The notes under the pieces are model-generated. The model searched no databases and was not told the origin of the DNA. It saw only the letters and a list, made by a program, of their open reading frames with translations. From a virus: a stretch of DNA of 64,000 nt. How positions within the stretch are numbered: position 1 is the first letter of the stretch; every line of letters begins with the position of its first letter. A program made the translations under genes and the position numbers. This document shows, piece after piece, positions 17,289 to 56,205 of this stretch. The stretch lies in the IMG/VR virus record IMGVR_UViG_3300037067_022550; one strand, given 5' to 3'.

Positions 17289-17684
17289 TTATTCTACTTT
17301 TTTTGAATCTGTTTTGTTAGTAAAACATTCGTAACATATACCTGTTTTCATCTGTCCACCCATGTCTGTCTCAATGAAAGAACAGATTGTAAACAGATCA
17401 AACCCCTGAACGGCCACAAAACCCCTAGCTATGGCTATAGCTTTGGAAGCCTTAAAACATGTGGCTGGGCTAAAACATCTAACATAGACAACTCCAAATT
17501 GTCTTAATCCGTGAGCTATCGCTCCTGCAAGATTTTTGACTCTTCTTTTTCTTTCTTCTGGATCTATGTCTTTGTCATCAGCTTTGACCTTTAGGATATT
17601 GCTAAATTCCTTATGGTCTTTTGTTTCAAGCTTTTTTTCAACTTCTTCTTTTTCAATCTCTGTGTTTTCCATTTTTTCCTCCAT
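17289..17684 (-). CDS. hypothetical protein
   Basis: 131-aa ORF followed by a terminator. Confidence 0.4.
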   Translation of the reverse strand: MEEKMENTEIEKEEVEKKLETKDHKEFSNILKVKADDKDIDPEERKRRVKNLAGAIAHGLRQFGVVYVRCFSPATCFKASKAIAIARGFVAVQGFDLFTICSFIETDMGGQMKTGICYECFTNKTDSKKVE

Positions 17685-25687: not shown

Positions 25688-26783
25688 ATTTTCTCCTTAA
25701 AAATAAATCTTTTTTATTAGAATATATCCATTTTAAGAAACTTATACAAGCTTTTCTTCCCCCCAACAAATATAAATTATAATAAATATTACCATTTTTA
25801 TGTATACTATTATGTATGTGAAATTTAAATTTGCTTTTAATATGACTTAAATCTTCTAAAAATTTAACAGATGCACTTGACAACTGTATTTGGTATCTTC
25901 CACTATTACTTCTATAAATACATCCGTCTCCATCTATCAAACCTCTAAAAAATGAATTAATGAATTTTTTAGGAACACAACCATTATACCTTAATACTTT
26001 TGATTTATTCCTTAATACTCCTAATTTTTTTAAGTCCATAGCAATTTTTTTATTAAACACACAAAGCCTAGCCATATCTTTTGCGTTTGGCATGTTTTTT
26101 CTTCTTGTAGAACAGTTTATATGTGTTATTGGATTACTTCCTCCAATTAAATTTCTTATTTTCTTAAGTATATATCCGTCATTTTTTGTTAATTGTATTC
26201 CAAAACCATCATATTTTTTTATAATATAACCGTCTGTCATAATTAAGCCAAATATATATGCTTTTTCAGAAGAATCTATTTTTTTAAAAAAATCTTCTTT
26301 GTAATGTGTTTGTATTTTGGGTTCTCTTCTTTTAATTCCTCTTTTTTTCAAACACGCATATACTGTTTCTTTTCTTTTAAATCCATATTTTTTGGCAATT
26401 TTATTGGCAACTCCACCATTTATATATTCTTTGATAATCTTTTTTTCAATATCATCTGTAATTTTTTTATTCCAAGAGCATTTTATTGGCAATGGAATTT
26501 TGTTTTTTTTATGAATTCTACATATGGCATAATATTTTGCCCCTGTTTTTTTAGATATTTTAGCCAATGAAATATTGTTACGATAAGCGTAATATGCAAG
26601 ATATTTTAAATATCTTTCTCTTTTTAACATCCATTTATTCTCATTAATTATTCTTCTAATTATTCTTTCTGTTAGTTTTGTTTCTTTTTCTATATTTTTC
26701 ATTTCTTCTTGTCTAAAAAACATAGAACGTATTATTTTTTTTGTTTTTTTATCAACATTTATTTTATTATATGCCATTCTCAT
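25644..26783 (-). CDS. free-standing LAGLIDADG homing endonuclease (two motifs) with N-terminal HTH repeats
   Basis: YIFGLIMTDGYI and RGLIDGDGCI motifs. Lies between the two dnaE halves, in a different frame from both. Confidence 0.75.
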   Translation of the reverse strand: MRMAYNKINVDKKTKKIIRSMFFRQEEMKNIEKETKLTERIIRRIINENKWMLKRERYLKYLAYYAYRNNISLAKISKKTGAKYYAICRIHKKNKIPLPIKCSWNKKITDDIEKKIIKEYINGGVANKIAKKYGFKRKETVYACLKKRGIKRREPKIQTHYKEDFFKKIDSSEKAYIFGLIMTDGYIIKKYDGFGIQLTKNDGYILKKIRNLIGGSNPITHINCSTRRKNMPNAKDMARLCVFNKKIAMDLKKLGVLRNKSKVLRYNGCVPKKFINSFFRGLIDGDGCIYRSNSGRYQIQLSSASVKFLEDLSHIKSKFKFHIHNSIHKNGNIYYNLYLLGGRKACISFLKWIYSNKKDLFLRRKYAKVQNKINKTVRC

Positions 26784-26853
26784 TCTGTTTCCTCTTTTAA
26801 TAGTATATATTCAGCAACATATGCTATTATTCAAAAAGAAACAGATAAAACCT

Positions 26854-29541
26854 TTATTTTATATTTTCTTCATATAAAATATTCATGTCTTTTTCAATAA
26901 TTTCGCTAACAGTATGAGCTTTTCCATCTTCACAAATAAATTTATGATTTAAGGTGCATTTAATTATCATTCCGTTTGATAATTCAATTTCATAAACTTC
27001 TTTTTTACCTGTTTTAAAAACTTTAACAACTTCGTCATCTATTGTATTGCCATCAACATAACTGTCTAAAACAACCTTTATATTACTATTACAAAGTTCT
27101 TCTAATGAATATCTTTTTTTATCAATTTTATTAAAAACTTTGGTTGAACCTAGTAAGCATTCATTGAATCCATATCCTCCAAAATACTGACATAGAGAAA
27201 ACACCCTTTCAGCAATATCCTTTTCAACTCCATGGTTAATGCACCCCTTAATAAACTTATCTTTTAATTTCATTATCTTTTCTGGCTCTTTTTTTCCTAT
27301 ACCTTTTCTTAAAGTATCAGCTTCTGATGCACTGAAGCCAGCCATTTTTATTGAAACTAACATTATTTGTTCCTGAAAAATCATATTGCCATAAGTTTTA
27401 CTAAGCAATTCTTTCATTATTGGATGTATATATTCTACTTGCTTTCTGTTATGCTTATAATCACAATAATCTGTATGGATGTCTGCATTAAGCACCCCTG
27501 GTCTATAAAGAGCATTTGCAACTACTATATCATTAAATGTATCTATTCTTAAATCTCCAATTAATTTGGTCATTCCTGTACTTTCAAGTTGGAATACCCC
27601 TCCTGTATCTCCATTAGTTAGCATATCAAAAACTTTCTGATCATTTGGTTCTAATGAATTAATATCAATGTCTTTATTATGCCTCTTTTTTATTAAGTCT
27701 AAACATTGCTCAACAAGAGTTAGAGTTTTTAATGCAAGAAAATCGAACTTTAGTAATCCCAATTCCTCTACTTCTTTAAGGTTATATTGAGTACAAATTA
27801 CATCTTTAGCTAATCTTAGTGGAACGTGTTGAACTACAGGATCTTTGCAAACAATTATTCCTGCAGGATGAACTCCCGCTGCTGAAAGCTTACCTTCTAT
27901 TTTTTTTGCATAACTAAAAACATCTTTATATTTATCAACATATTCTTTCAAGTTGCTAATATATCTGTTTTTTTTGTATGTAGTAAGTTTATCAATTTCA
28001 ATATTTGGACCATTGGGAATTGATTTGCATATCTCATTGGCAAGCTGTAATGTTTTTTCTCCTGATTCCCAATTGCCCTTAAAATCACCCTTCATGTTTT
28101 CAAAATCATTTCCTATATCTAAAACCTTGCAGACTCTCCTAACAGCGTCTTTTGCCTTCAAACTAGTATATGTTCCTATTCTTGTTGTGCATTCAACTCC
28201 ATATTTATGAGTTAAATATTGAAAAACTTGCTCTTGTTTTGTATAATCAAAATCCAAATCAACATCAGGAGGGCTAACTCTATCTTTATTTAAAAATCTT
28301 GAAAAAAGTAAATTGTATTTTACAGGATCTACGTGGGTAATTCCAAGACAATATAAACATAACGAAGCCACACCACTTCCTCTTCCAGGCCCAGTCCTTA
28401 TCCCTTCTCTTTTAGAGTAGGCAATAACATCCCAAAGTATTAAAAAATATTTTGCATATTTAAGACTTACAATAACATCCCATTCTTCTGCTATCCTTTC
28501 CTCATATTCTGGTTTACCTTTTAAACCCCTATTTACCATACCGTCATCAATTAAACTCTTTAAATATACTTGTTCTGATGATTCTCCAGGTGGCAATTTG
28601 AAATCAGGTAACAAATCTTTTTCAATTTCAATAAGATTATCTTCAATTTTATCAGATATAATAATACTATTGCTTAATAACTCTGGAAGATTTTTATATA
28701 CTTTCTCTAATTCTTCAAAAGGTTTAATATAAAAATCACTAGATTCAAAAGAAAACCTCTTTGGATTTTTAATAGTATCTTTAGTTGCTATACTTAAGAG
28801 AACATCTTGAGCTAAATAATCTTCCTTATCAGCATAATGAGAGTCACATGTAGCTACAGGAAGAATGTGCAGTTCCTTAGCTAATTTATATAACTTATGC
28901 ATAACAATTTTAAATTCACTGGTAGTCTTTTCGTCGTTATATTTGTGAACCATTATTTCAACAAAAAAATCATCACCATATATTTCTTTAAACAATAATA
29001 AGTTTTTTCTAGCAGTTTCCATGTCGTTTTTTAATATATAATGAGCTGCCAAACCATTAATACAAGCAGATCCACAAATAATACCGTCTTTATGCTTCTT
29101 TAACAAATCAACATCAATCCTTGGACGACTATAAAACCCCTTTAAATAGGCCACAGAGCTAAGAGCTATTAAATTCTTATAGCCAACCTTATTTTTAGCT
29201 AATAAGGTCACGTGAAGCCTTTTGTCATCTTTATTCTTAATATTTATATCATCAACTAAATATAATTCTGTTCCCAATATTGGCTTAATCTTTTCTTTTA
29301 TCTCTTCTTTGTTGCCATGATGAACTTTTTGTTCTTTACAAGCATTATAGAACCTATATAAACCAGCACAAGTACCATGATCTGTTAACGCAATTGCTCT
29401 AAAGCGGTTTTTCCTAGCAGTGTTAGCCATATCTTCAGGAGAGCAAAAACCATCTAATAGAGAGAAATAACTATGGCAATGAAGAGGGACATAACCTGCC
29501 CATTGTTTATTTACTGTAGATATAGATGTTTCTTCAGACAT
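26854..29541 (-). CDS. dnaE: DNA polymerase III alpha (DnaE) N-terminal fragment ending in N-intein half (101 aa, 26857-27159)
   Basis: PHP domain HCHSYFSLLDG and pol III alpha core. ...YFGGYGFNE|CLLGSTKV... begins a Hint N-terminal block that runs 101 aa to a stop codon. Confidence 0.8.
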   Translation of the reverse strand: MSEETSISTVNKQWAGYVPLHCHSYFSLLDGFCSPEDMANTARKNRFRAIALTDHGTCAGLYRFYNACKEQKVHHGNKEEIKEKIKPILGTELYLVDDINIKNKDDKRLHVTLLAKNKVGYKNLIALSSVAYLKGFYSRPRIDVDLLKKHKDGIICGSACINGLAAHYILKNDMETARKNLLLFKEIYGDDFFVEIMVHKYNDEKTTSEFKIVMHKLYKLAKELHILPVATCDSHYADKEDYLAQDVLLSIATKDTIKNPKRFSFESSDFYIKPFEELEKVYKNLPELLSNSIIISDKIEDNLIEIEKDLLPDFKLPPGESSEQVYLKSLIDDGMVNRGLKGKPEYEERIAEEWDVIVSLKYAKYFLILWDVIAYSKREGIRTGPGRGSGVASLCLYCLGITHVDPVKYNLLFSRFLNKDRVSPPDVDLDFDYTKQEQVFQYLTHKYGVECTTRIGTYTSLKAKDAVRRVCKVLDIGNDFENMKGDFKGNWESGEKTLQLANEICKSIPNGPNIEIDKLTTYKKNRYISNLKEYVDKYKDVFSYAKKIEGKLSAAGVHPAGIIVCKDPVVQHVPLRLAKDVICTQYNLKEVEELGLLKFDFLALKTLTLVEQCLDLIKKRHNKDIDINSLEPNDQKVFDMLTNGDTGGVFQLESTGMTKLIGDLRIDTFNDIVVANALYRPGVLNADIHTDYCDYKHNRKQVEYIHPIMKELLSKTYGNMIFQEQIMLVSIKMAGFSASEADTLRKGIGKKEPEKIMKLKDKFIKGCINHGVEKDIAERVFSLCQYFGGYGFNECLLGSTKVFNKIDKKRYSLEELCNSNIKVVLDSYVDGNTIDDEVVKVFKTGKKEVYEIELSNGMIIKCTLNHKFICEDGKAHTVSEIIEKDMNILYEENIK

Positions 29542-30828: not shown

Positions 30829-31767
30829 TTGATAAGGAGATATATGCCTAATATAATACAACTTTTAATCAATTTATTCAGAAATATAAATAAAAAAGAA
30901 GAAGATTTAATACCACAAGGCACTAACACACCTTCAGTTCAAATTATTGTTCCTGCACCAATTACTCTCCCAGTATTAACGGCTGGTAAGAAAAGGGGAC
31001 TATTTCTCGGGATTAATGACTATCCTGGCTCATCAAATGACTTGAGGGGTTGCTTAAATGATGATATTGAATGGATTTCATTGCTAAAAGATTGTTATAA
31101 ACTTGATGAGATTACTAATTTAACAAACAGCCAATGTACTATAGCAAATGTTAAAAAATATATGACGGAAATAATTAATGTTTCTATGCCCAACGACGTA
31201 TTAATTATTCAATATAGTGGACACGGATCTTATAGAGCAGACATGCATAATGATGAAATTGATGGTAAAGACGAAGCCATTGTTATGTATGATGGTTTTA
31301 TAATAGATGATGAAATTGAAGAAATGTTATCAAAAATAAAAAATGGCGTAAGAACAACTATTATACTTGATTCATGCTTTAGCGGTAGCGGAACTAGATC
31401 ATTTAACTTTAATGATGAAAGCTTTTATAGAGTAGGAAGATTCATGCCTCCAAAGGATAATGGTAAAATAATGGGTCTAAAAATAAAAAGCAGGGTATTT
31501 AGATCTATTGGAAAAACAGAAGAAGAAATGAATCATATTTTAATTTCTGGTTGTTCTGATTCAGAAGTAAGCTATGATGCTGAATTTAATGGAAAATATT
31601 ATGGTGCCATGAGTTATTATGCCACAAAAGTTTTAAGAGAAAATCCCATGATTACATATACTGAATTTTATAAAAAGTTAAGAGAAAAACTACCTAGTTC
31701 CATGTACCCTCAAACTCCCCAACTTGAAGGAAAATCTGAGTTTAAGAACATAATAATGTTTAGTTAA
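30829..31767 (+). CDS. caspase-family (peptidase C14, metacaspase-like) protein
   Basis: AAGGAG RBS. KRGLFLGINDYPGSSNDLRGCLND, catalytic His in IQYSGHGSY, and catalytic Cys in ILDSCFSGSG. Confidence 0.6.
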   Translation: MIRRYMPNIIQLLINLFRNINKKEEDLIPQGTNTPSVQIIVPAPITLPVLTAGKKRGLFLGINDYPGSSNDLRGCLNDDIEWISLLKDCYKLDEITNLTNSQCTIANVKKYMTEIINVSMPNDVLIIQYSGHGSYRADMHNDEIDGKDEAIVMYDGFIIDDEIEEMLSKIKNGVRTTIILDSCFSGSGTRSFNFNDESFYRVGRFMPPKDNGKIMGLKIKSRVFRSIGKTEEEMNHILISGCSDSEVSYDAEFNGKYYGAMSYYATKVLRENPMITYTEFYKKLREKLPSSMYPQTPQLEGKSEFKNIIMFS

Positions 31768-32811: not shown

Positions 32812-33879
32812 ATGGCAAAAAACATGGAAACAAAAGATTATATAAATGAATTAAAAAAGATATTTTCACAAGAAAACGAAAAAGTAGTTATTTTTATAGG
32901 TCATCCAGACCCGGATTCTATTGGTTCTGGCATGGGAATTAAATTGCTATTGCAAAACATAAGTAAGTCTGATTGCACCATTGTTTATTCTGGGGAAATT
33001 TCTCATCCTCAAAATAGAACATTAGTCAATGTTCTCAATATAGATTTAATAGAGCAAGAAAAATTCTTTCTCGATAATAAAAATGAAATCTGTAAAAAAT
33101 ATTCAAAATTTGTATGGGTAGATAGCGTTCCGAGAGAAAAATTTTCAGAAGAAATAAAGCCATCATTAGTTATTGATCACCATAAAACTAATTATGACAA
33201 AAATGGTTCTATTGTTGATATAAGAAATGTTGGAGCTTGTTGCTCTATCGTTTGGGAATACATTAAAAATTCCGGTTATAAACTATCTCCAGATAAAGAA
33301 TCTGACACAAAAATAGCTATTGCAATGCTTTTCGGAATTAAAACAGATACTGGAGATTTAATTTCAGATAACACAACTGATCTAGACTTTATAGCATATC
33401 AAGATTTAGCAGTTATAGTTAAAGAAAACAATATATCAGATATTATTAATTATAAATATCCTGCTTACTTTTTTGAAGTTAGATCAAGATTAGATGAAGA
33501 AGGTAATTCAGTTATAAAAGATTCTTTTTTTATTGGAGGAATAGAATTTATCTCCCCAGTAAGACGAGATTGTTTGCCAATGCTAGCTGATGAAAGGGTT
33601 AGGATGGAAGGCATTTCAACATCCATTTTGTATGCCATTGTTGGAGACAATCTAGAGGTAAGTATTAGAAGCAATAATCCGGCTATTGATGTAAATAAAT
33701 TGTGTAAAGATATTTTTGGAGAAGACTATGCTGGTGGAAGAACAGGAGCAGGAGCAGCAAGAGTTCCATTAGGTATTTTAAGTGCTAGTACCATGTCAGA
33801 CGACGATAAGAAAATTATATGGGGAGCATATCGTTCAATTATACTACATAAAATATTACATTATTGTGGCGGTCATTAA
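32812..33879 (+). CDS. DHH-family phosphoesterase (NrnA-like nanoRNase/pAp phosphatase)
   Basis: GHPDPDSIGSG, VIDHHKT (DHH), and C-terminal GGH, which is DHHA1-like. Confidence 0.6.
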   Translation: MAKNMETKDYINELKKIFSQENEKVVIFIGHPDPDSIGSGMGIKLLLQNISKSDCTIVYSGEISHPQNRTLVNVLNIDLIEQEKFFLDNKNEICKKYSKFVWVDSVPREKFSEEIKPSLVIDHHKTNYDKNGSIVDIRNVGACCSIVWEYIKNSGYKLSPDKESDTKIAIAMLFGIKTDTGDLISDNTTDLDFIAYQDLAVIVKENNISDIINYKYPAYFFEVRSRLDEEGNSVIKDSFFIGGIEFISPVRRDCLPMLADERVRMEGISTSILYAIVGDNLEVSIRSNNPAIDVNKLCKDIFGEDYAGGRTGAGAARVPLGILSASTMSDDDKKIIWGAYRSIILHKILHYCGGH

Positions 33880-34406
33880 GGAGTCAAGGAGCTTAAACTA
33901 GATTCTGAACTTTGACTGCTTGGGCTACTTAAACTTGACTCTGAACTTTGACTTGATACTGAGCTTATACTTGAACTGCTTGCACTAGACTGAGAAACTA
34001 TAGAACTTGAACTTCCAGAACTTGCAGAACTTATACTACTTGATGAAAGACTTTGCGAACTAGAACTTGCCGAACTTTGAGTTGTTCTAGAACTACTAGA
34101 AGAACTTGACCCTGTAGATTCAGAACTTGAACTAGAAGACAACATTCTTCCTCCAGAAACTTCATCCATGATAACTACAGCCCGTGCTTTAAGTTCTTCT
34201 GTTACATCATAATTTGGAGCAGGTAGATTAAGAACTATTTCTGCAGGAACAGCAACACCAGTACCAAAAACCTTTTGCCCTGTTGAACATCTTATATAGT
34301 AATTTGGATACCCGGAATGACTTTGATTAACAACAGCATTTTCAACAGTAAAATCAATATTATAATTTATATCATAAATTTCATCATAAACTTGAATTGT
34401 TGCCAT
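33876..34406 (-). CDS. protein with serine-rich low-complexity C-terminal tail
   Basis: The C-terminal roughly 90 aa are almost pure S/T/Q repeats (SSSSSESTGSSSSSSSRTTQSS...). Confidence 0.4.
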   Translation of the reverse strand: MATIQVYDEIYDINYNIDFTVENAVVNQSHSGYPNYYIRCSTGQKVFGTGVAVPAEIVLNLPAPNYDVTEELKARAVVIMDEVSGGRMLSSSSSSESTGSSSSSSSRTTQSSASSSSQSLSSSSISSASSGSSSSIVSQSSASSSSISSVSSQSSESSLSSPSSQSSESSLSSLTP

Positions 34407-34552
34407 ATTTTATTCTCCTTTTAAGAATATTTACATATTATTCTTACTTCATTTAAATTTAACCTTTTTATTTGGTTATATTTATTAAATATTTCTTTTT
34501 ATTGAAATATTATTAACTAAGAATATGGCAAAATCCTTTATTTAATAAAAAG

Positions 34553-34624
34553 AGCACCTTGAGGGAATCGAACCCCCGTCTGAAAGTTTGCAGCTTTCTG
34601 CCTGAACCACTCGACCAAAGGTGC
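34553..34624 (-). tRNA. tRNA-Cys (GCA)
   Basis: Cloverleaf fits. Anticodon stem GAAAG/CTTTC with loop CTGCAAA, and T-arm GGGGGTTCGATTCCC. Confidence 0.65.
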
Positions 34625-34631
34625 TTGAAAA

Positions 34632-34710
34632 TGGTGGGGGAGAAGGGAGTTGAACCCATATTTTCGGATTTTCAGTCCGTTTCCGATTGACCGCGTTGGA
34701 ACACTCCCCC
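34632..34710 (-). tRNA. tRNA-Phe (GAA), somewhat irregular D-arm
   Basis: Acceptor GGGGGAG/CTCCCCC, anticodon loop CTGAAAA, T-loop TTCAACT, and CCA encoded. Confidence 0.55.
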
Positions 34711-34724
34711 ATTACAAGTAAAAC

Positions 34725-34800
34725 TGGTAGTGTCGGTGGGATTCAAACCCACAATTTCAAGCTTCGGAGGCTTGTGCCCTATTCATTAGGCTACAACACT
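34725..34800 (-). tRNA. tRNA-Arg (CCG)
   Basis: Anticodon stem CAAGC/GCTTG with loop CTCCGAA; T-arm GTGGGTTTGAATCCCAC. Confidence 0.65.
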
Positions 34801-34803
34801 ATT

Positions 34804-34884
34804 GGTAGCCCTGACAGGATTTGAACCTGCATTTTCATTTCCATTATGCACTTGACGGGTAGAAACCGCCGCCACTACAGGGCT
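34804..34884 (-). tRNA. tRNA, anticodon undetermined (irregular anticodon/variable region)
   Basis: Acceptor AGCCCTG/CAGGGCT, T-arm GCAGGTTCAAATCCTGT and CCA are clear. No clean 5-7-5 anticodon arm was found. Confidence 0.45.
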
Positions 34885-34891
34885 ATAAAAA

Positions 34892-34982
34892 TGGTGGCGT
34901 CGGATGGATTTGAACCACCAGCGTTTAGCCATAGGCACCTGATTTACAGTCAGGCGGTTTCAGCCAATTCACCCACGACGCC
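34892..34982 (-). tRNA. tRNA-Tyr (GTA), class II long variable arm
   Basis: Anticodon stem CCTGA/TCAGG with loop CTGTAAA; long variable arm; T-arm GGTGGTTCAAATCCATC. Confidence 0.65.
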
Positions 34983-35718: not shown

Positions 35719-36162
35719 TTAACACAATTTAATTTTTTTTAAATTTTCCTTAGTCCAAGCAAAGGGTATACGTACAGCATTGGGTAAAGCATCATTAATA
35801 TTTTTTGCCCCAACTGAATTCAAACTATGTACAACAATATTCCGTGGCATAAATTGTTGGTTTTCTTCAAGGAATTTGGCAACTTCATACCCTGTGTTTT
35901 CTCCAGAAGGAACATAAGCTTCACCACCTAAATCGTGGTCTAGAAACAGAATATCCCATTTTTCATTTGATAGTTTTTGTATTGCTGTTTTAGATGAATC
36001 AGTTATTTCAACATCATAATTTATAAGATTTTTATAAAATTGTTCTTGTCTCTCAACACTATCTTCTAGTATAAGTATTCTCATTATATTTTTTTCCCAT
36101 AAGTTTCTACTAAACAATAAAGTGACAAAAATAATGCATTCATTGTAGCCAAGAAGGGGCAC
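35719..36162 (-). CDS. stand-alone response-regulator receiver (CheY-like REC) domain protein
   Basis: MRILILEDS..., the phospho-acceptor context DILFLDHDLGG, and NIVVHSLNSVGA. Confidence 0.55.
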   Translation of the reverse strand: MPLLGYNECIIFVTLLFSRNLWEKNIMRILILEDSVERQEQFYKNLINYDVEITDSSKTAIQKLSNEKWDILFLDHDLGGEAYVPSGENTGYEVAKFLEENQQFMPRNIVVHSLNSVGAKNINDALPNAVRIPFAWTKENLKKIKLC

Positions 36163-40591: not shown

Positions 40592-41848
40592 TTATTGGGG
40601 CATCATAACAGCCCAATTATATGAACGATTTAATAAGTTAGAAGCAACCTTATTGCAATCTCCTATTGTTGTCTTTTCAATACCGCTGATAATATCTTCA
40701 ACCGTTTTGTTATTATCGAATAATAAAGATTTCATAACTGTGCTAGCCATTCCAAACGATGTTTCTGTATTTCTAAATATTTGAGACAACAAATCAGTTT
40801 TTGCACATTCAAAAACTTTATTGGCTAAACCGTTATGTTTAATTTTGTGTAATTCGTTTTCACATTCTTCAATAAATAAATTAACGTTTTTAGGTGAAGT
40901 ATTGCCATAAATCATAGGAAGAATACAATTAGGATAAGATATATCTGTTACTTGAGAACCTACAGAATAACATAAACCCAATTGCTCTCTTATTCTAGAG
41001 AATAGAATTGAATACATACCACCTCCAATACACTTAAAAAGTATCTTTTGAGCAAAATAATAAAGATCATTTGCCCCTAACCCTAATAGTGGCAAACAAA
41101 CCTGAGACTGAGTTATTTTATTTCTTTTGACAAGTAATTTAATTTTCTTGTTGTTTATAAAATCCTTTTTCCAAAGCTTATTATCACAAATGTTTTTAGT
41201 TCCATGTTTTAAAAAAGAATGCTGTTTTGGGAAATTTAATTTAATGTATTCTATTATATCTTCTGTTTTTGTTGGTCCACAAAAAACAAATAATATATTT
41301 TCATAACAATTGTTTTTATGGAGATATTGAATGATTTTGTCTCTATTAATCCCTTTTATGGTTTTAACAGTGCCAATTATAGAATGACCCTTTTCTTCTG
41401 TGAACATTTTGTTTCCAATGTTTTCATAAAAGAAAGACGTATGGTCATCATTATATCCTTTTCTTTCTTCAATAATAACATTTCTTTCTTTCTCAATCTC
41501 TTCTACTGGAAACAGAGAATTAAAAAACATATCTGTCATTAAACTAATTGCATTTTTTATATTTTTGGCTGGAAAAGTACAATGATATAAAACTTCTGTA
41601 TTATCAGTATAAGCATTTTGACTTGCTCCAATAGATGCAAATTCTTCATTAATTTGTTTCCAGTCTCTATTTTTTGTACCTTTAAAAAACATATGCTCTG
41701 CAAAATGAGAAATTCCGTAAATATCGGGGGTTTCAAAATTGCTTCCACAAATAGTGCAAATTCCCATAAAATTTATATTGCTATTATTATAAATGTTTGC
41801 TACTCTTAATCCATTGACATTTGATATTTCTATGTTTCCGTTTTTCAT
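40592..41848 (-). CDS. M16-family (pitrilysin/insulinase-like) zinc peptidase
   Basis: Inverted zinc motif HFAEHMFFKGT (HxxEH). Confidence 0.6.
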   Translation of the reverse strand: MKNGNIEISNVNGLRVANIYNNSNINFMGICTICGSNFETPDIYGISHFAEHMFFKGTKNRDWKQINEEFASIGASQNAYTDNTEVLYHCTFPAKNIKNAISLMTDMFFNSLFPVEEIEKERNVIIEERKGYNDDHTSFFYENIGNKMFTEEKGHSIIGTVKTIKGINRDKIIQYLHKNNCYENILFVFCGPTKTEDIIEYIKLNFPKQHSFLKHGTKNICDNKLWKKDFINNKKIKLLVKRNKITQSQVCLPLLGLGANDLYYFAQKILFKCIGGGMYSILFSRIREQLGLCYSVGSQVTDISYPNCILPMIYGNTSPKNVNLFIEECENELHKIKHNGLANKVFECAKTDLLSQIFRNTETSFGMASTVMKSLLFDNNKTVEDIISGIEKTTIGDCNKVASNLLNRSYNWAVMMPQ

Positions 41849-41893: not shown

Positions 41894-42934
41894 ATGGAAC
41901 AATTATTTACAAGAAAAGAATTTAGAGAAAAAGTTTTTCAAAGAGACGGCAATAAATGCGTAATATGCAATGAAACCAAAAATCTGGATGCTCATCATAT
42001 TGTTGATCGTAGACTTTGGGATGATGGAGGGTACTATCTTTCCAATGGCGTAACCTTGTGTTCAACTCATCATATTCAAGCAGAGCAAACGGTATTAAGT
42101 TGTAATAATGTCAGAGATGCTGCTAAAATTAAAACGATACTGCTGCCGCCTACTTTTTATAATGATGAACAAATAGACAAATGGGGTAACATAATACTTC
42201 CAAATGGCCAAAGATTTATAGGAGAACTTTTCTTTGATGAATCTGTTCACAAAATATTAGAACTTGGAGGGGTTTTAAATCAATTTACTAAGTTCATAAA
42301 ATACCCCAAAACCCAACACCTGCCTTGGTCTCCTGGAATAACTAAAGATGATAGGGTTATGAAAATTCAAGACTTAGAAAAAAACTTTGGGGGCAAGGAA
42401 GTTGTTATAAGTGAAAAAGTTGATGGGGAAAACACAACATGCTACAACAATTATATTCATGCTCGTTCAATTGATGGCAGAAATCATGTTTCTAGAAATT
42501 GGATCAAGAATTTACACTCCAAAATAAAATATGACATACCTGAAGGATGGAGAATTTGCGGTGAAAACCTTTATGCAAAACATACAATAGCATATTCTAA
42601 TCTTCCATCTTATTTCTTGGTTTTTGCAATATTTAATGAAAAAAACACTTGTTTGAGCTTTTTAGAAACAGTTGAATATTGTAAATTGCTGGGTTTAAGT
42701 TGGGTACAACCAAAATTTATTATGAAATATGATGAAAAATTTATAAAAGAAAACTGTTATACCGGCAATTCAATGTATGGGGGAGAACAAGAAGGTTATG
42801 TGATTAGATTGTCTTCTGAAATTCCATTTACAAATTATAAAAATAGTATTGCCAAATATGTTAGAAAGAATCATGTTCAAACAAATCAAAATTGGATGTA
42901 TCAACCAATAATAAAAAACAAATTGTCAATTTAA
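41894..42934 (+). CDS. HNH-motif / Rnl2-like RNA ligase fusion protein
   Basis: N-terminus CVICNETKNLDAHHIV...CSTHH (HNH). Ligase motif I EKVDGEN, motif III-like RICGENLYAKH, and motif IV EGYVIR. Confidence 0.6.
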   Translation: MEQLFTRKEFREKVFQRDGNKCVICNETKNLDAHHIVDRRLWDDGGYYLSNGVTLCSTHHIQAEQTVLSCNNVRDAAKIKTILLPPTFYNDEQIDKWGNIILPNGQRFIGELFFDESVHKILELGGVLNQFTKFIKYPKTQHLPWSPGITKDDRVMKIQDLEKNFGGKEVVISEKVDGENTTCYNNYIHARSIDGRNHVSRNWIKNLHSKIKYDIPEGWRICGENLYAKHTIAYSNLPSYFLVFAIFNEKNTCLSFLETVEYCKLLGLSWVQPKFIMKYDEKFIKENCYTGNSMYGGEQEGYVIRLSSEIPFTNYKNSIAKYVRKNHVQTNQNWMYQPIIKNKLSI

Positions 42935-45002: not shown

Positions 45003-45077
45003 TGGTGGACCCAGGGAGAATCGAACTCCCACTAAAAGCTTGCAAAGCTCCCGTGCTACCATTATCACTATGAGCCC
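45003..45077 (-). tRNA. tRNA-Ala (UGC), solitary
   Basis: G3:U70 pair, anticodon loop TTTGCAA, T-arm GGGAGTTCGATTCTCCC, and CCA encoded. Confidence 0.65.
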
Positions 45078-47660: not shown

Positions 47661-48095
47661 TCATAATGAAACAATTATTACTCTATCATCTAAAATTGGT
47701 TCTATTATTTTTTTAACATCTTTCCAGTCTAACCCCCCATTAGCGCAACCTGGTCTAGGAAGAACAACTTTTTTATAGTTATTTTTATTAATTAATTCCA
47801 TTAATTCTTCTGTAGATTTTTCTATTAATCTTATATCAGAAGGATCTTTCCAGTGATATTTTGTTGGAAAAGATATTAAATCTGTTAAATCTGCCGTATA
47901 GAAAACTCCAACATTATGTCCCATTTTTTTAATACGAATACCCAAATACTTATCACAGCCAGGAAACTTTTTAACAGCAGCCAAAGCAACTCCTGCACCC
48001 ATTACTGCACAACCATTTGCCTTAATAATACCGTTCGTGGTAATACAATAAGCATTAGCAAGTATATCCCACATATTTCCAGTTAATTCTTTCAT
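47661..48095 (-). CDS. macro-domain-like protein (ADP-ribose binding/processing)
   Basis: NGCAVMGAGVALAA glycine-rich loop and PRPGCANGG. Confidence 0.4.
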   Translation of the reverse strand: MKELTGNMWDILANAYCITTNGIIKANGCAVMGAGVALAAVKKFPGCDKYLGIRIKKMGHNVGVFYTADLTDLISFPTKYHWKDPSDIRLIEKSTEELMELINKNNYKKVVLPRPGCANGGLDWKDVKKIIEPILDDRVIIVSL

Positions 48096-51483: not shown

Positions 51484-52254
51484 TTAAATATGACAATCAA
51501 CACCAATAATATAATAATCTGGATATTTTTTAATAATTCTAGTTGCTTCATATAACCATTTTTCTTCATCCTTTTCATCAGAAACAATTGCCCACCATCC
51601 CATTCTTCCTTTTTCGCACCATTCCCCGTCTGGAGTAACTATTGCAAAAGGAATAATGTCTTCTGCATGATCCTGTGCGATTTTTAAATATTCCTTAACA
51701 GAAATAATATTATTACCTAATATATGATGATCTTCAGAAAAATTAAACCCACCATCATTGCTTTGCCTTCTATTATTCATTATAACACCATCATATCTAC
51801 CTCCAACCACATACCAATCCCATTTTGATTTAGGATTATATGTGCTAGACCTTTTGCCAGTTCCATTACATTCTTCACACGCAACGTTTGCCTTATTAAT
51901 GTCTGGATGACTTTCTTTTAGTAATTCTTCAGCATCAGACCTTGGTTTCATTTCTTTCTTCCATGCATTATCTATATATTTTCTGCCTTCTTTACTAAAT
52001 TGCCATTCTTTATCTTTCATCTGCGATAAAGAATTGACCCTTTCCCAAAAAATCTTTCTGTAACTTTCAATTGATCCAAATTTTTCATCCAATGTTTTAT
52101 AGATTTCTTCTTCTGCCTTTTCTCCAATACAATAGCACTCTTCATCATACGGAGCAACACTAATATTTTCATTATATGGTGACATAAGATTTTTCAACTC
52201 TTCGTCAGCATTATTAATGTCCTTAACAATAACCCCAACAAGAAAATGACTCAT
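51484..52254 (-). CDS. hypothetical protein
   Basis: 256-aa ORF. Confidence 0.4.
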   Translation of the reverse strand: MSHFLVGVIVKDINNADEELKNLMSPYNENISVAPYDEECYCIGEKAEEEIYKTLDEKFGSIESYRKIFWERVNSLSQMKDKEWQFSKEGRKYIDNAWKKEMKPRSDAEELLKESHPDINKANVACEECNGTGKRSSTYNPKSKWDWYVVGGRYDGVIMNNRRQSNDGGFNFSEDHHILGNNIISVKEYLKIAQDHAEDIIPFAIVTPDGEWCEKGRMGWWAIVSDEKDEEKWLYEATRIIKKYPDYYIIGVDCHI

Positions 52255-52307: not shown

Positions 52308-52817
52308 TTATATCATATCTGCTCTTGCTGCTAAAGCATAATGAGCTAAACGATATTTGTCCTTTAAAGAACATTCCTTAAGATTGAACATGTTATCTTC
52401 CAAATCAAAAATTTTTATTTCCCGATATGGAGTTTGTTTTATTCTCATAATAAAATCATAATAGTTTTCATGTTCCCTTCTTGTAAGAGCCTCAAATCCT
52501 TCAATAATATATGAAGTAAAAAACTCCTTAACATCTTCTATTTTCGTTTTTGTATCTTCAAAAACATCGTGGCACAAAGCAATAGCAATATTTTCATCAA
52601 GCCTATCAAACATTTCAGCAGTAGGTAATGCATACATAGGTTGAATAAAAATCTTCCAAGCTACTCTAACAGGATGATTAATATAATCTTCATTTATAAA
52701 TTTTCTTTTTTGTCCTCTATGAGAGATGTCTGCAATAGAAAGAGCTTTTAAACTATATTTAAACTTTTGCTCTTTTTTCTTTAACTCTTCGTAAAAATCT
52801 GTTGTTTTTTTATTCAA
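52308..52817 (-). CDS. HD-domain small alarmone hydrolase (SpoT/Mesh1-like (p)ppGpp pyrophosphohydrolase)
   Basis: HRGQKRKFINEDYINHPVRVA...AIALCHDVFEDT parallels the SpoT HD motif RKGSGEPYITHPLAVA...ALLHDVIEDT. Confidence 0.55.
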   Translation of the reverse strand: MNKKTTDFYEELKKKEQKFKYSLKALSIADISHRGQKRKFINEDYINHPVRVAWKIFIQPMYALPTAEMFDRLDENIAIALCHDVFEDTKTKIEDVKEFFTSYIIEGFEALTRREHENYYDFIMRIKQTPYREIKIFDLEDNMFNLKECSLKDKYRLAHYALAARADMI

Positions 52818-53220
52818 TTATTTTTCCTTTATAAAAGTTTTTTATATAATTTTCAAGATCTTTTGCAACATCAAATAGCTTAGTTGCAGATGCCCCAAAA
52901 CATGATGATGAATCAGACCAATTTGCTAAATCAATTACTTGTTTATGCTTCTCTTTTAAAATATTCAATGTTTTTTGACAATCATGATTTTTCCATCTGG
53001 CGATAGCACGATCAGCAACAACAGGATGAGACTGACATAAAACGATAACATCCTCAGAATCAACATCTTCCCAAAGCATATCCCCTTCAACTGATACAAG
53101 AATAAAAGGTTTTATGTTTGCAATAATAGCACAAGGATATAAATTACTACCACTATGAAGTATTAAGGATTCACTAATACCGCTTATTCTACGTGGAATA
53201 ACAACATCTCCAATTTCCAT
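52810..53220 (-). CDS. hypothetical protein
   Basis: 136-aa ORF. Confidence 0.35.
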   Translation of the reverse strand: MEIGDVVIPRRISGISESLILHSGSNLYPCAIIANIKPFILVSVEGDMLWEDVDSEDVIVLCQSHPVVADRAIARWKNHDCQKTLNILKEKHKQVIDLANWSDSSSCFGASATKLFDVAKDLENYIKNFYKGKIIE

Positions 53221-53425
53221 AATATTTCCCTTTCCTTCATTTATTTACTACAAAATAACATGCTATATAAAATTGTCAAGAAAAAAGTTACAATTTTAAA
53301 AAAAACTATTCTTCGGACATAATGTTCCATTGTTATGCCAAAAATATGTTCTAAAATGACCGTGGAAGAGCTAAAACTAGTCAATATAGACATAATATGA
53401 TAATTGAATATTTTGTATTTAAACC

Positions 53426-53896
53426 TTATCTAACTCTATTTTTGTGAGAATCTTTATGACAACGTAAACAAAGCGTTCTATAATTTTCTAAACCACAGCA
53501 TCCACCACCTTGTGATACAGGAATTATGTGGTCTGCTTCCCAAAATACATAATTTTTAGTATGCCACGGACCCCAATATTTCTTGAACTCAAAATAATTC
53601 CAAGACAACCTTTTTATGTTTATAGCCTCTTTTCTAATTTCGTTGGTGTCAATTCCACACAAAGAGCATATTCCGTGGTCTCTATTAAAAACATAATAAC
53701 TAACATATGAGCCAGTATACCTAATATTGGCTTCTTCTTGGCAAGCATCTGAACAATACTTAAGCCCTTTGCGACCTTTTCCACCACACCAAGCACAAGA
53801 ATCTGGATACCTAATTAGATCTTTTAACGGCTTCAAAAACCTTTGAAATCTCAACTTGTATAGAATATCTTTTACTTCTGGACGTGGAGTAATCAT
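53426..53896 (-). CDS. HNH endonuclease
   Basis: ADHIIPVSQGG...NYRTLCLRCH plus upstream CxxC pairs. Confidence 0.6.
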   Translation of the reverse strand: MITPRPEVKDILYKLRFQRFLKPLKDLIRYPDSCAWCGGKGRKGLKYCSDACQEEANIRYTGSYVSYYVFNRDHGICSLCGIDTNEIRKEAINIKRLSWNYFEFKKYWGPWHTKNYVFWEADHIIPVSQGGGCCGLENYRTLCLRCHKDSHKNRVR

Positions 53897-53941: not shown

Positions 53942-54018
53942 TGGTGGAACCAGTGGAAGTTGAATCCACACTTACAGGGTGCAGACCTGTCGTGCTATCC
54001 GTTGAACACTATGGCCCC
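53942..54018 (-). tRNA. tRNA-Ala (UGC) with G3:U70; unusual C at position 33
   Basis: Acceptor GGGGCCA/TGGTTCC, anticodon stem ACAGG/CCTGT with loop TCTGCAC, and T-arm GTGGATTCAACTTCCAC. Confidence 0.55.
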
Positions 54019-54028
54019 AAAATTAAAC

Positions 54029-54105
54029 TGGAGCGGGAAACGGGAGTCGAACCCGTACCTGAACTTAGGCAAAGTCCCATGCTAACCATTGAACACCATT
54101 CCCGC
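54029..54105 (-). tRNA. tRNA-Gly (GCC)
   Basis: Anticodon loop TTGCCTA; T-arm ACGGGTTCGACTCCCGT. Confidence 0.6.
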
Positions 54106-54114
54106 ACTAAAAAT

Positions 54115-54197
54115 TGGTGGGCGGAGTGGGACTCGAACCCACGACGCTTACGCAACAGGGTGTAGACCTGTCCTCCTAGCCACTAGAGTACCCGCCC
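54115..54197 (-). tRNA. tRNA, anticodon UAC (Val?) with C33 and an extended variable region
   Basis: Acceptor GGGCGGG/CCCGCCC, anticodon arm ACAGG-TCTACAC-CCTGT, variable region about 12 nt, and T-arm GTGGGTTCGAGTCCCAC. Confidence 0.45.
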
Positions 54198-54250
54198 AAA
54201 AATTGTTTTATCATTATGTATTATACAAAAAAACATTTATTTCTTCATGA

Positions 54251-54324
54251 AGCCCAAGGAGGGATTTGAACCCCCAACATTCTCAGTACGAAAGAGATGT
54301 TCTACCAATTAGAACTACTTGGGC
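54251..54324 (-). tRNA. tRNA-Thr (CGU)
   Basis: D-arm GTTC/GAAC, anticodon loop TTCGTAC, T-arm GGGGGTTCAAATCCCTC; CCA not encoded. Confidence 0.55.
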
Positions 54325-54331
54325 AAAAAAA

Positions 54332-54406
54332 TGGAGCCGCAAATTGGATTTGAACCAATGACCCCGATCTTACCAAGATCGTATTCTGCCCCTGAACTAT
54401 TGCGGC
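54332..54406 (-). tRNA. tRNA-Thr (GGU)
   Basis: Anticodon stem CGATC/GATCG with loop TTGGTAA. Confidence 0.6.
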
Positions 54407-54432
54407 ATTAAATTATTTCATTTCAATTTGTA

Positions 54433-54469
54433 GCTGAAGTCTGGAATTGAACCCACAAGCATCTTCAGC
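54433..54469 (-). other. tRNA-like minihelix / truncated tRNA remnant (acceptor-like 7-bp stem + T-arm-like loop)
   Basis: GCTGAAG-(TCTGGAATTGAACCCACAAGCAT)-CTTCAGC; too short for a full tRNA. Confidence 0.3.
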
Positions 54470-54474
54470 AAAAT

Positions 54475-54549
54475 TGGTACTCCCATCGGGACTCGAACCC
54501 GCTTCACCAGATTAAAAGTCTGGTACTTCACCATAAAAGCTTTGGGAGC
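54475..54549 (-). tRNA. tRNA-Lys (UUU)
   Basis: Anticodon stem CCAGA/TCTGG with loop CTTTTAA; G1:U72. Confidence 0.6.
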
Positions 54550-54555
54550 AAAAAA

Positions 54556-54631
54556 TGGTGATTGCGGGGGGACTTGAACCCCCAGCGTCCAGGGTAAGAA
54601 CCTGGCACTCTGCCAATTGAGTTACGCAACC
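54556..54631 (-). tRNA. tRNA-Lys (CUU)
   Basis: Anticodon stem CCAGG/CCTGG with loop TTCTTAC; T-arm GGGGGTTCAAGTCCCCC. Confidence 0.65.
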
Positions 54632-54636
54632 GAAAA

Positions 54637-54714
54637 TGGTGGGTGCTGTGGGATTTTGACCCACGACTCCCAGGGTAAAAACCTGGTACTCTGTTCATGC
54701 TGAGTTAAGCACCC
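54637..54714 (-). tRNA. tRNA-Lys (UUU), paralog of preceding gene
   Basis: Same anticodon stem, with loop TTTTTAC. Confidence 0.65.
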
Positions 54715-54721
54715 GAAAAAT

Positions 54722-54795
54722 TGGAGCTGGCGGCGGGTACGAGACCGCATAATCCTCATTACAAGAGAGGCACATAACCTTTCTGTCACGCCAGC
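54722..54795 (-). tRNA. tRNA-Thr (UGU), irregular T-arm
   Basis: Perfect acceptor GCTGGCG/CGCCAGC; anticodon loop CTTGTAA; T-loop region non-canonical. Confidence 0.45.
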
Positions 54796-54799
54796 ATAA

Positions 54800-55429
54800 T
54801 TAATAACTTTTTTCACTTTGATATCTAAGTTTTCTATAAAATCTTCCGTTTCCTCTGTTCTTTCCTTTATATGTTGATGTTTGCATATCACAATTTCCGC
54901 ATATTAATCTTAAATTTAAAATACTCCAATTAGTAGAATTACCGTCTATGTGGTCTAACACTAAAGGAACTTCTTTTCCCATCCATTCTGTTGTTCCGCA
55001 TATTGTGCATTTTCCACCTTTAGTTTCTTTTAAATATCTTCTTGCAACTTTAGAATTAAAAATAGGATTTAAAAAAGCATTTCCTTTTGATTCTATTGCT
55101 TTCTTTTTTAAACTCCACTCAAAATCCTTTTGACATTTAATAGTACAATATTTTCTATTGGAAAATAATAATTTTTTACCACAAAATAAACAATTAGATG
55201 GTTCTTCTCCGTGTCTTCTTACTCCTTTGTTATTAAATGAAGCAGCACAAGAATGATTACAAAAAGTTAAACGTCTTTTTTTATATGATAAAACAGAATT
55301 GCAGAATTTACATATTTTGGGATTTGAAATATAATTTTCTCTAAACTTTTTAAATCTTTCTTGATTTTTAATATTAGATTTTTCTGATCCAATCTTACCA
55401 GCTTCCGAACAACTCATTCCTTTTCTCAT
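54800..55429 (-). CDS. HNH homing endonuclease embedded in tRNA array
   Basis: CTICGTTEWMGKEVPLVLDHIDGNSTNWSILNLRLICGNCD plus several CxxC. Confidence 0.6.
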   Translation of the reverse strand: MRKGMSCSEAGKIGSEKSNIKNQERFKKFRENYISNPKICKFCNSVLSYKKRRLTFCNHSCAASFNNKGVRRHGEEPSNCLFCGKKLLFSNRKYCTIKCQKDFEWSLKKKAIESKGNAFLNPIFNSKVARRYLKETKGGKCTICGTTEWMGKEVPLVLDHIDGNSTNWSILNLRLICGNCDMQTSTYKGKNRGNGRFYRKLRYQSEKSY

Positions 55430-55518
55430 TTTTGAACTCCTTATCAGTTGTTAATATACAACTGCTATATGGTTCAAAAATGATTTGTGGCTAACCTGCT
55501 TTTATTTTTCAACAAAAA

Positions 55519-55592
55519 TGGAGCGTCCCAACGGATTTGAACCGTCTCCCAGACCTTGGAAGGGTCTAATGCTACCGTTACACCAGGGACGC
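55519..55592 (-). tRNA. tRNA-Gly (UCC)
   Basis: Anticodon stem AGACC/GGTCT with loop CTTCCAA. Confidence 0.6.
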
Positions 55593-55618
55593 ATCTTTTC
55601 ATTATACAACAAAATAAT

Positions 55619-55697
55619 TGGAGCACCTAATGGGATTTGAACCCATACCATCAGCTTGGAAGGCTGTCATGCTAGATCCGTTGAACACCATAGGTGC
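55619..55697 (-). tRNA. tRNA-Gly (UCC), second copy with longer D-region
   Basis: Anticodon stem CAGC/GCTG with loop CTTCCAA; T-arm ATGGGTTCAAATCCCAT. Confidence 0.5.
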
Positions 55698-55706
55698 ATT
55701 TAAAAA

Positions 55707-55791
55707 TGGTAGGGGGGCGGTATTTATCCAATTATGTGCATTTAAAGCCTCTTGGTTATGAGCCAAGCGATAAAAGCTTTACCTACCCCGC
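55707..55791 (-). tRNA. aberrant tRNA-like element with CAU anticodon arm (possible pseudo-tRNA)
   Basis: Clean anticodon arm CTTGG-CTCATAA-CCAAG, but no canonical T-arm and an acceptor with a 5' extension. Confidence 0.3.
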
Positions 55792-55956
55792 TATAAACTT
55801 TTCAGGGATTTCACGAAATGTTCCACTGTTGGCGACCCGACCGCCATCTTCCTGGTGACCCAGGCGTGCTCCATACACCACGTAGCGTCTATCCTTTTTA
55901 GGTTACTGCCCTTTAGTTCGTCAACTTTCAGGCACACCTCTTGCAAGATTTCAAAT

Positions 55957-56033
55957 TGGTAACGGGGGCCGGATTTGAACCGGCGACCTACAGGTTATGA
56001 GCCTGCCGAGCTACCAGGCTGCTCCACCCCGTA
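55957..56033 (-). tRNA. initiator tRNA-fMet (CAU)
   Basis: Near-identity to bacterial tRNA-fMet (GGGGTGGAGCAGCCTGGTAGCTCG...CTCATAACC...GGTTCAAATCCGGCCCCCG) with a 1:72 mismatch. Confidence 0.8.
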
Positions 56034-56041
56034 ATATTAAA

Positions 56042-56118
56042 TGGTAGCAGGGATGGGACTTGAACCCACAACCTACGGGTTATGAGCCCGTGAAGCTTCC
56101 TATTGCTAGCACCCTGCA
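56042..56118 (-). tRNA. tRNA-Met or tRNA-Ile2 (CAU)
   Basis: Anticodon stem CGGG/CCCG with loop CTCATAA; T-arm GTGGGTTCAAGTCCCAT. Confidence 0.6.
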
Positions 56119-56129
56119 AATCAGTAAAA

Positions 56130-56205
56130 TGGTGCCGGGGAGGGGAATTGAACCCCTGATCTTTCGGGTATGAGCCGAACGTCTTGCACACTCGACCACC
56201 CCGGC
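56130..56205 (-). tRNA. tRNA-Met or tRNA-Ile2 (CAU)
   Basis: Anticodon stem TTCGG/CCGAA with loop CTCATAC; T-arm AGGGGTTCAATTCCCCT. Confidence 0.6.

Follow-up and report, generated by a model that had tools for sequence, protein, structure and literature searches.

Hydrolases that belong to the RSH (RelA/SpoT homolog) family use a bound metal and a water molecule activated by a glutamate-aspartate (ED) pair to take off the 3ʹ-pyrophosphate of their substrates. Small alarmone hydrolases (SAHs) encoded by phages are already recognized, and they are presumed to counter alarmone growth arrest and toxic small alarmone synthetases (toxSAS). Salmonella phage SSU5 and phage PVP-SE1 encode the stand-alone SAHs PaSpo and PbcSpo, respectively, and both neutralize all tested toxSAS (Jimmy et al. 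2020, PMC7229694). Aph1 (adenosine 3ʹ-pyrophosphohydrolase 1; PDB 7smg) is encoded by a prophage of Bacteroides caccae (Ahmad et al. 2023, PMC10083569). Here we analyzed an SAH gene in a 64-kb stretch of phage DNA (the whole of it is called the window below) from the IMG/VR virus record IMGVR_UViG_3300037067_022550. The open reading frame (ORF), with a TTG start and a TAA stop, encodes 169 aa and fills 52308..52817 on the minus strand exactly. One more phage SAH changes little in this picture; the one described here belongs to a mostly viral, Aph1-related clade with swapped specificity positions.

The original prediction, made from the letters of the sequence, had named this ORF a SpoT/Mesh1-like small alarmone hydrolase without a synthetase domain, and the ORF listing gave an ORF at exactly these coordinates on the minus strand, a strand that the prediction had not named. 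When the protein was compared with the PDB using phmmer, the top match was Aph1 (7smg, 1.5e-14), followed by Rel, PaSAH, Mesh1 and other SAHs. Twenty-nine relatives retrieved from a search of 5.8 billion proteins were aligned (alignment A1), and this alignment was the source of both a family profile and an AlphaFold2 model. The profile matched 7smg at 7.4e-31 (110 bits), with SpoT as the runner-up at 63 bits, and SpoT, Rel, Mesh1 and PaSAH fell between 1e-16 and 1e-11; all 23 of its PDB matches were Rel/SpoT/Mesh1/SAH hydrolase domains. The model (pLDDT 92.9, pTM 0.89) led to the same group of enzymes. In the Foldseek search against the PDB, Aph1 again ranked first (E 2.4e-7; TM 0.80, target-length normalized), PaSAH, Mesh1, Rel and SpoT came next, and 44 RSH hydrolase chains ranked above the first generic HD enzyme, YfbR (E 0.35). 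A fold search of BFVD also returned many phage proteins of the same fold.

Among family profiles, PHROG 990 (metal-dependent phosphohydrolase) matched at 1.5e-25 and NCBIfam TIGR00691 (spoT_relA) at 6.2e-10, the latter only over profile positions 1-81 of 687, which is the hydrolase end. The Pfam scan of the protein returned neither HD_4 nor RelA_SpoT, the two domains that the original prediction had proposed to search for, and gave only a chance-level match to D123. Synthetase, TGS and ACT domains were absent from the Pfam and NCBIfam scans of the 169 aa, in line with the predicted lack of a synthetase domain. The matches in sequence and in fold were RSH hydrolases throughout, with generic HD phosphohydrolases at chance level, so the outcome that would have spoken against the original prediction, best matches to generic HD enzymes, did not occur. 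Both the sequence comparisons and the model thus support the assignment to the RSH hydrolases with a single domain, the small alarmone hydrolases. The label "SpoT/Mesh1-like" held for the RSH hydrolase family but not for the nearest characterized relative, which is Aph1 rather than SpoT or Mesh1.

The conserved motifs of RSH hydrolases are complete in the SAH: the R/K substrate motif, the metal His, HD, ED, the metal Asp and the Asn. The substrate-binding motif HRGQKRK (residues 33-39; 52701..52721, minus strand) was located with HMMER alignments, in which R38 and K39 correspond to R43 and R44 of TtRel and to D24 and K25 of Aph1 (residue roles from PMC10083569). HPVRVA (residues 48-53; 52659..52676, minus strand), whose HP is also seen at this place in the Rel, SpoT and Aph1 alignments, provides H48, the first metal-binding His, and LCHDVFEDT (residues 81-89; 52551..52577, minus strand) contains the HD metal dyad H83/D84 and the ED catalytic dyad E87/D88. 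These were the two motifs on which the original prediction was built, and both were read directly at these residues; the reverse complement of the second segment is TTG TGC CAC GAT GTT TTT GAA GAT ACA. In KIFDLEDNMFN (residues 135-145; 52383..52415, minus strand), taken from the alignments with its numbering checked against profile-to-chain ranges and PMC10083569, K135 precedes the metal ligand D138 and N142, the counterpart of TtRel N150 and Aph1 N114. At the end of this motif, N145 corresponds to TtRel T153 and is aligned with Aph1 R119 past a 2-residue deletion that removes D116. Finally, the clade-specific C-terminal helix LKDKYRLAHY (residues 151-160; 52338..52367, minus strand) is homologous to EKDIYRLNKY of Aph1, with H159 matching Aph1 K133 and Y160 matching Aph1 Y134.

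Conservation of these residues was followed in A1 and in a wider set of 177 sequences, made up of the 29 relatives and the best cluster representatives of the library search (41,390 matches at E≤1e-3, of which 249 at E≤1e-30). Invariant in A1 were H33, Q36, R38, K39, Y45, H48, H83, D84, E87 and D88, and further along the chain Y119, D121-M124, K135, D138, N142 and L151-Y155. In the wider set, H83, D84 and E87 were present in all 177 sequences and D88 in 172. Position 39 was more variable (K in 105, R in 19), and the other motif residues, including H48, were each kept in at least 172. Such conservation of the catalytic residues across 177 relatives argues for purifying selection on activity.

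The likeness to Aph1 includes its C-terminal half. BLASTP of the SAH against Aph1, whose residues 6-140 were rebuilt from HMMER output and are identical to the B. caccae protein P0178, gave 39% identity over 141 aa (8e-21), reaching the C-terminal helix. The Aph1 family has been delimited by homology over the C-terminal ~53 residues, Y90-E143 (PMC10083569), and the SAH alignment spans Aph1 residues 89-140 with E.Y.DFI.R, K..DLEDNM and KD.YRL..Y conserved, so that the homology covers this defining segment. The Aph1 protomer, which assembles into tetramers, is compact, with eight helices, and lacks the N-terminal alpha0 and the C-terminal alpha9 (PMC10083569). Both the SAH and Aph1 are phage-encoded, compact single HD domains that end directly after the YRL..Y helix without alpha9; in the SAH model no helix follows residues 151-163, and the chain ends at residue 169. 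The SAH differs from Aph1 in having an extra predicted N-terminal helix (residues 3-13), which brings the number of helices to nine, and an insertion of ~14 residues that separates the H48 helix from the HD helix. The N-terminal extension behind helix 3-13 is common only to the closest relatives (P0001-P0008).

At the residues that set the specificity of Aph1, however, the two proteins diverge. The Aph1 signature consists of six residues, D24, R96, D116, R119, K133 and Y134, and a D24R+R119A double mutant of Aph1 acquires ppGpp hydrolysis (PMC10083569). Only two of the six are kept in the SAH: R96, as R125 (R in 135/177 clade members), and Y134, as Y160 (Y in 86/177). Of the remaining four, D24 is replaced by R38, D116 is deleted together with I117, R119 is replaced by N145, and K133 is replaced by H159 at a variable position, where clade members have H (40), K (26), R (24), L (24) or other residues. 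The change at the two positions of the double mutant recurs in most of the clade. Position 38 is R in 173/177 SAH relatives and D in 120/120 close Aph1 relatives, whereas position 145 is mostly D in the SAH relatives (D 138, N 10, S 10, T 10 of 177) and R in 115 of the 120 Aph1 relatives. As a pair, (R, D) occurs in 135/177 of the former and (D, R) in 115/120 of the latter. Judged from these alignments, the two sister clades carry reciprocally swapped charges at both specificity positions. The 120 Aph1 relatives are the matches listed, all of them at least 80% identical to Aph1, and the covariation is thus a contrast between two clades and not a graded series. Positions 38 and 145 should be spatially close, given the statement in PMC10083569 that both adjoin the base.

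Since the residues at both experimentally shown specificity positions are the opposite ones, transferring the annotation "(p)ppApp hydrolase" to the SAH and to at least 173 related cluster representatives is unsafe. The clade also offers a natural test of the D24/R119 specificity model.

Compared with the other RSH enzymes, the SAH appears to be assembled from features of two groups. TtRel contacts guanine through R43, R44, S45, N150, T153 and M157 (PMC10083569). In the alignment of the A1 profile (positions 6-139) with TtRel (residues 27-156), R43 lies opposite the family R, while N142 is the partner of N150 and position 145 that of T153, so that the contact positions R43, R44, N150 and T153 correspond to SAH R38, K39, N142 and N145. 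At R38 and N145 the predicted base pocket of the SAH therefore resembles that of Rel rather than that of Aph1. The hydrolase domains of Rel and SpoT (TtRel 6s2t, RelSeq 1vj7, SpoT 7qpr) share the fold and the same six hydrolase motifs with the SAH; unlike them, the SAH has no synthetase, TGS or ACT domain and no alpha9, S45 and M157 of TtRel are replaced by F40 and C149, and the A1 profile matches their sequences only weakly (E 1e-16 to 1e-13). PaSpo of SSU5 is close to the SAH in its N-terminal motifs, which are almost the same in both proteins, GQKRK(F/Y)..EDYINHPV and ALxHDVxEDT. The identity by BLASTP is 40% over 126 aa (residues 35-146), and the similarity ends at N142. After DxxxN, PaSpo (213 aa) continues with a Rel-like region and a longer C-terminus, while the SAH has the Aph1-like C-terminal helix instead. 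By these comparisons, the N-terminal substrate motif of the SAH is of the PaSpo/Rel kind, and its C-terminal half is like that of Aph1. The promiscuous SAHs PaSAH (bacterial; 6yvc) and MESH1 (metazoan; 3nr1/5vxa) are also single-domain enzymes of the same fold (Foldseek E ~1e-4, TM ~0.65-0.70), but they are only 19-23% identical to the SAH, are larger (~175-180 residues in the solved chains), carry an extra C-terminal helix and come from other genomic contexts.

Taken with the complete motifs and the predicted fold, we consider it probable that the SAH is a catalytically competent single-domain RSH hydrolase that keeps 3ʹ-pyrophosphorylated nucleotides low in the infected cell. In the proposed mechanism, H48, H83, D84 and D138 would hold a divalent metal, Mn2+ or Mg2+, on which activity presumably depends. 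E87-D88 would activate water, and the 3ʹ-pyrophosphate would be cleaved from a 3ʹ-pyrophosphorylated purine nucleotide whose base and ribose lie in a pocket lined by R38/K39, N142 and N145. Because an Aph1-like scaffold is joined to a Rel-like base pocket, the predicted substrates are (p)ppGpp and probably also (p)ppApp, and the enzyme would not be (p)ppApp-specific. Low alarmone levels would in turn counter the stringent response and the toxSAS enzymes by which abortive infection is set off. The original prediction had likewise proposed that such an enzyme blunts stringent-response or (p)ppApp-based defenses. This part agrees with PMC7229694 and with work on T7, in which the stringent response restricts the phage and elevated (p)ppGpp delays lysis (bioRxiv 10.64898/2026.01.27.700999); the part that concerns infection by the present phage is, like substrate range and expression timing, what we infer. 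A comparable role as a broad toxSAS antidote has been proposed for PaSpo and PbcSpo, which the SAH resembles in standing alone, with no cognate toxin detected, in a lytic-type phage genome.

Several points weigh against this interpretation. The closest solved relative, Aph1, is strictly (p)ppApp-specific; moreover, 12 of 12 tested Aph1 homologs hydrolyzed ppApp and only two had modest ppGpp activity (PMC10083569), so the similarity in scaffold argues for (p)ppApp. The specificity of Aph1 is a concerted effect of several residues (PMC10083569), and two positions therefore cannot settle that of the SAH. Pfam HD_4 did not match the SAH even at E≤10. A precomputed PF13328 (HD_4) match is present in 16 of the 29 relatives, and the HD_4 model appears, on these comparisons, too insensitive for the divergent clade of the SAH. 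Our literature search found no biochemical characterization of the SAH or its clade and no phage SAH acting during a real infection. A role against toxSAS would, furthermore, depend on a host that carries toxSAS.

The enzyme might instead act on tRNA 3ʹ ends, reversing the pyrophosphorylation of CCA ends by CapRel, FaRel2 and PhRel and restoring aminoacylation, which we regard as possible but doubtful. Some SAHs, MESH1 and ATfaRel, make tRNA that FaRel2 has modified fit for aminoacylation again, and removal of the tRNA modification is also reported for PaSpo. PaSpo, with which the SAH has GQKRK..EDYINHP in common, also neutralizes CapRel, PhRel2 and FaRel2 (PMC7229694). The location of the gene would suit such a task, as a cluster of 13 tRNA genes lies ~1.1 kb away and includes those for Gly and Thr tRNAs, which are FaRel2 targets; an RNA ligase gene is found ~10 kb from the SAH gene, and tRNA genes are also near the SAH gene (~2.5 kb) in 4/16 related viral loci. 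This proximity is missing, however, in the other 12, L005 and L006 are probably related phages, and mere clustering of accessory genes could account for it. Nothing in the SAH sequence tells pyrophosphorylated tRNA from nucleotide substrates, and repair of tRNA need not exclude alarmone hydrolysis.

Alarmone hydrolysis and tRNA repair are joined in a broader proposal, which we likewise regard as possible but doubtful: the clade may be a phage-specialized, broad eraser of 3ʹ-pyrophosphates, including those placed on tRNA CCA ends by abortive-infection toxins of the CapRel/FaRel2 type, and deployed beside the phage tRNA bank as a translation-protection module. If this were true, the clade would represent a natural counter-defense to immunity based on toxSAS, and the pocket swap would account for what sets the substrate range of SAHs.

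Hydrolysis of alarmones could also serve a narrower purpose, if the SAH were an Aph1-type, (p)ppApp-specific immunity enzyme against a phage-borne, MuF-fused toxin similar to Apk/Tas1, as in the B. caccae prophage. Aph1 is the best match in sequence and structure and is itself prophage-encoded, but the SAH keeps only R125 and Y160 of the signature, and most Aph1 homologs are not linked to a toxin (PMC10083569). The surroundings of the gene speak against it as well. Of the ORFs in the 64-kb window that were compared with Pfam, none carried a RelA_SpoT synthetase domain, nor is there one in the precomputed Pfam annotation of genes within ~10 kb downstream and ~4 kb upstream of the SAH, and neither flanking ORF resembles a toxin or Tis1. 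Thus, in contrast to the Aph1 system, no gene beside the SAH could be recognized as a (p)ppApp synthetase toxin or as Tis1-like, and since no synthetase was detected in the window, immunity to a toxin of the phage itself is unlikely.

We regard a non-alarmone substrate as still harder to accept, be it through the 3ʹ- or 2ʹ-phosphatase activity on NADPH or PAPS reported for MESH1 or through action on some other phosphorylated nucleotide, for instance one that serves as an immune signal or belongs to the nucleotide pool. The catalysis of RSH hydrolases is versatile, the Foldseek matches included structures of MESH1 with NADPH and PAPS (5vxa, 9chy), and the window contains other genes aimed at nucleotide signals or modifications (Tad3, a macrodomain, cREC_REC and a MazZ-like diphosphohydrolase). 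But the similarity of the SAH to Mesh1 is much weaker than that to Aph1 or Rel, the SAH keeps, or replaces conservatively, the equivalents of the guanine contacts R43, R44 and N150 of Rel and has N145, another hydrogen-bonding residue, in place of T153, and positive evidence for any non-alarmone substrate is lacking. That the SAH is a generic phosphohydrolase of the HD superfamily, or else an inactive relic outside alarmone metabolism, is scarcely credible, even though Pfam gives the SAH no domain and PHROG 990 is named only "metal-dependent phosphohydrolase", because the catalytic residues are conserved across the 177 relatives, the significant PDB and fold matches are all RSH hydrolases and no generic HD enzyme scores better than E 0.35, after the 44 RSH chains; the generic reading was rejected on the A1 profile and Foldseek matches.

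To see where the clade occurs, scans were run with two of its C-terminal motifs, YFDFIMR and SLKDKYRL. In IMG/VR, 16 loci were confirmed, on viral contigs of 22-304 kb, whereas the scan of one genome per species (185,579 bacterial and archaeal species) gave a single match, on a 3.3-kb contig of a bacterial metagenome-assembled genome that is uninformative about hosts. The clade as these motifs define it is therefore mostly, indeed essentially, viral, and such near-exclusive viral occurrence suggests a phage-adapted enzyme. Among the 16 related loci, the SAH is the only gene of the window that recurs, apart from single matches to the cREC_REC-like ORF (L010) and to an endonuclease (L016), so that an operon partner is not conserved over this evolutionary distance. 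The adjacency of tRNA genes, found within ~2.5 kb of the SAH gene in only four of these loci, was too weak to be kept as a family trait.

The TTG of the SAH gene and the stop of the co-oriented ORF upstream of it (136 aa; 52810..53220, minus strand) overlap by 8 nt (TTGAATAA), which suggests translational coupling of the two. A Shine-Dalgarno-like AAGGA, read from the sequence, lies 7 nt before the TTG (52825..52829, minus strand). The N-terminus MNKKTT is similar to those of homologs at 53-60% identity (MNETT, MNEKT and MNKET), and this agreement makes the TTG start credible. Downstream lies a co-oriented ORF of 256 aa (51484..52254, minus strand; phrog_10079) with a CxxCxGxG motif. In the close relative L023, a homolog of the 136-aa ORF (47% identity) occupies the same position and one of the 256-aa ORF (66% identity) directly follows the SAH; the three-gene order is kept there, but it is absent from another close relative, L021, and from the more distant viral loci. 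The 136-aa ORF had no Pfam, PADLOC or PDB match. PADLOC returned nothing for the SAH and both flanking ORFs, and the PDB sequence search of the flanking ORFs gave nothing significant. Just upstream of the 136-aa ORF, a consensus scan placed a promoter-like site (TTGACA, a 16-nt spacer and TATTTT, with an upstream TG; 53252..53279, minus strand) that may drive the three-gene block. The region holds 22 such sites against 16.3 +/- 4.0 in shuffled sequence, a number not clearly above expectation.

The window as a whole (GC 30.2%, most genes on the minus strand) belongs to a large, uncultured low-GC phage, and the SAH gene sits in its DNA-replication and accessory-gene part. Replication and repair genes include those for a DnaE-type polymerase, SbcC-like and UvsX-like proteins, a primase and dCMP deaminase, and there is a weak tail-tube match. 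Megablast of 10 kb around the SAH against GenBank phages gave no match, so there is no annotated close relative from which context could be borrowed; the DnaE-type polymerase is ~35% identical to polymerases of human-faecal phage contigs. A SpoVS homolog (17289..17684, minus strand; 4.6e-13) hints at a Firmicutes-type host. The 18 tRNA genes are all on the minus strand, in the main cluster at 53942..56205 and at 34552..34982 and 45003..45077, and they include three for tRNA-Met, three for tRNA-Lys, three for tRNA-Gly and two for tRNA-Thr. Beside or within the main cluster are two genes for HNH endonucleases, at 53426..53896 and 54800..55429.

Several other genes of the window may act against host defenses. 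A 192-aa ORF (6074..6652, minus strand) matched Tad3, the Type I Thoeris inhibitor, in Pfam at 1.6e-35 and is likely an anti-Thoeris gene. A DarG-like macrodomain protein of 144 aa (47661..48095, minus strand; Pfam Macro 1.5e-7, PHROG 335 "phosphatase" 1.5e-31, PADLOC DarG 1.4e-22) may be a phage antidote to DNA ADP-ribosylation of the DarT type. The presence of both, together with the 18 tRNA genes, in the same genome points to host takeover or counter-defense, and with Tad3 and the macrodomain alongside the SAH this phage is a good source of anti-defense candidates. The 147-aa cREC_REC ORF ("cyclic-phosphate processing receiver"; 35719..36162, minus strand; 3.5e-15) had weak PADLOC matches to PDC-M60, and its homolog in the viral locus L010 lies ~3.3 kb downstream of the SAH relative. 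A caspase-like peptidase of 312 aa (30829..31767; Peptidase_C14 7.5e-23, PADLOC "caspase" 9.8e-10) is encoded on the plus strand, opposite to most genes of the window. Auxiliary genes of other kinds are present as well. The N-terminal domain of a MazZ-like dATP/dGTP diphosphohydrolase (5.8e-20) is encoded at 1182..1625 on the minus strand. The gene for the RNA ligase (2.3e-26), which has an HNH_2-like N-terminus, is also on the plus strand (41894..42934), and an M16 peptidase (40592..41848) and a peptide deformylase (2663..3325; 2e-25) are encoded on the minus strand.

Some further features were recorded. An 810-aa ORF (57591..60023, minus strand) without a PADLOC match resembles the major vault protein, MVP (shoulder 3.7e-23, vault repeat 4.3e-8), and has a weak SPFH/Band_7 match. 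A 176-aa ORF without a family match (33876..34406, minus strand) has an extremely serine-rich, low-complexity tract in its C-terminal half (SSSSSESTGSSSSSSS...). An IS200/IS605-type element occupies 3313..4784 on the minus strand, with a Y1 transposase (PF01797, 8.2e-38) at 4371..4784 and a TnpB-like transposase (phrog_506, 1.1e-70) at 3313..4374. The DnaE-type polymerase appears split across 25061..29541 (minus strand) into an 895-aa N-terminal part at 26854..29541 and a 208-aa ORF with the DnaE HHH_6 domain (7.7e-17) at 25061..25687. Between the two parts, at 25644..26783, lies an endonuclease ORF (phrog_4645, 1.7e-43), and the arrangement looks as if a mobile endonuclease had inserted into the gene for the polymerase.

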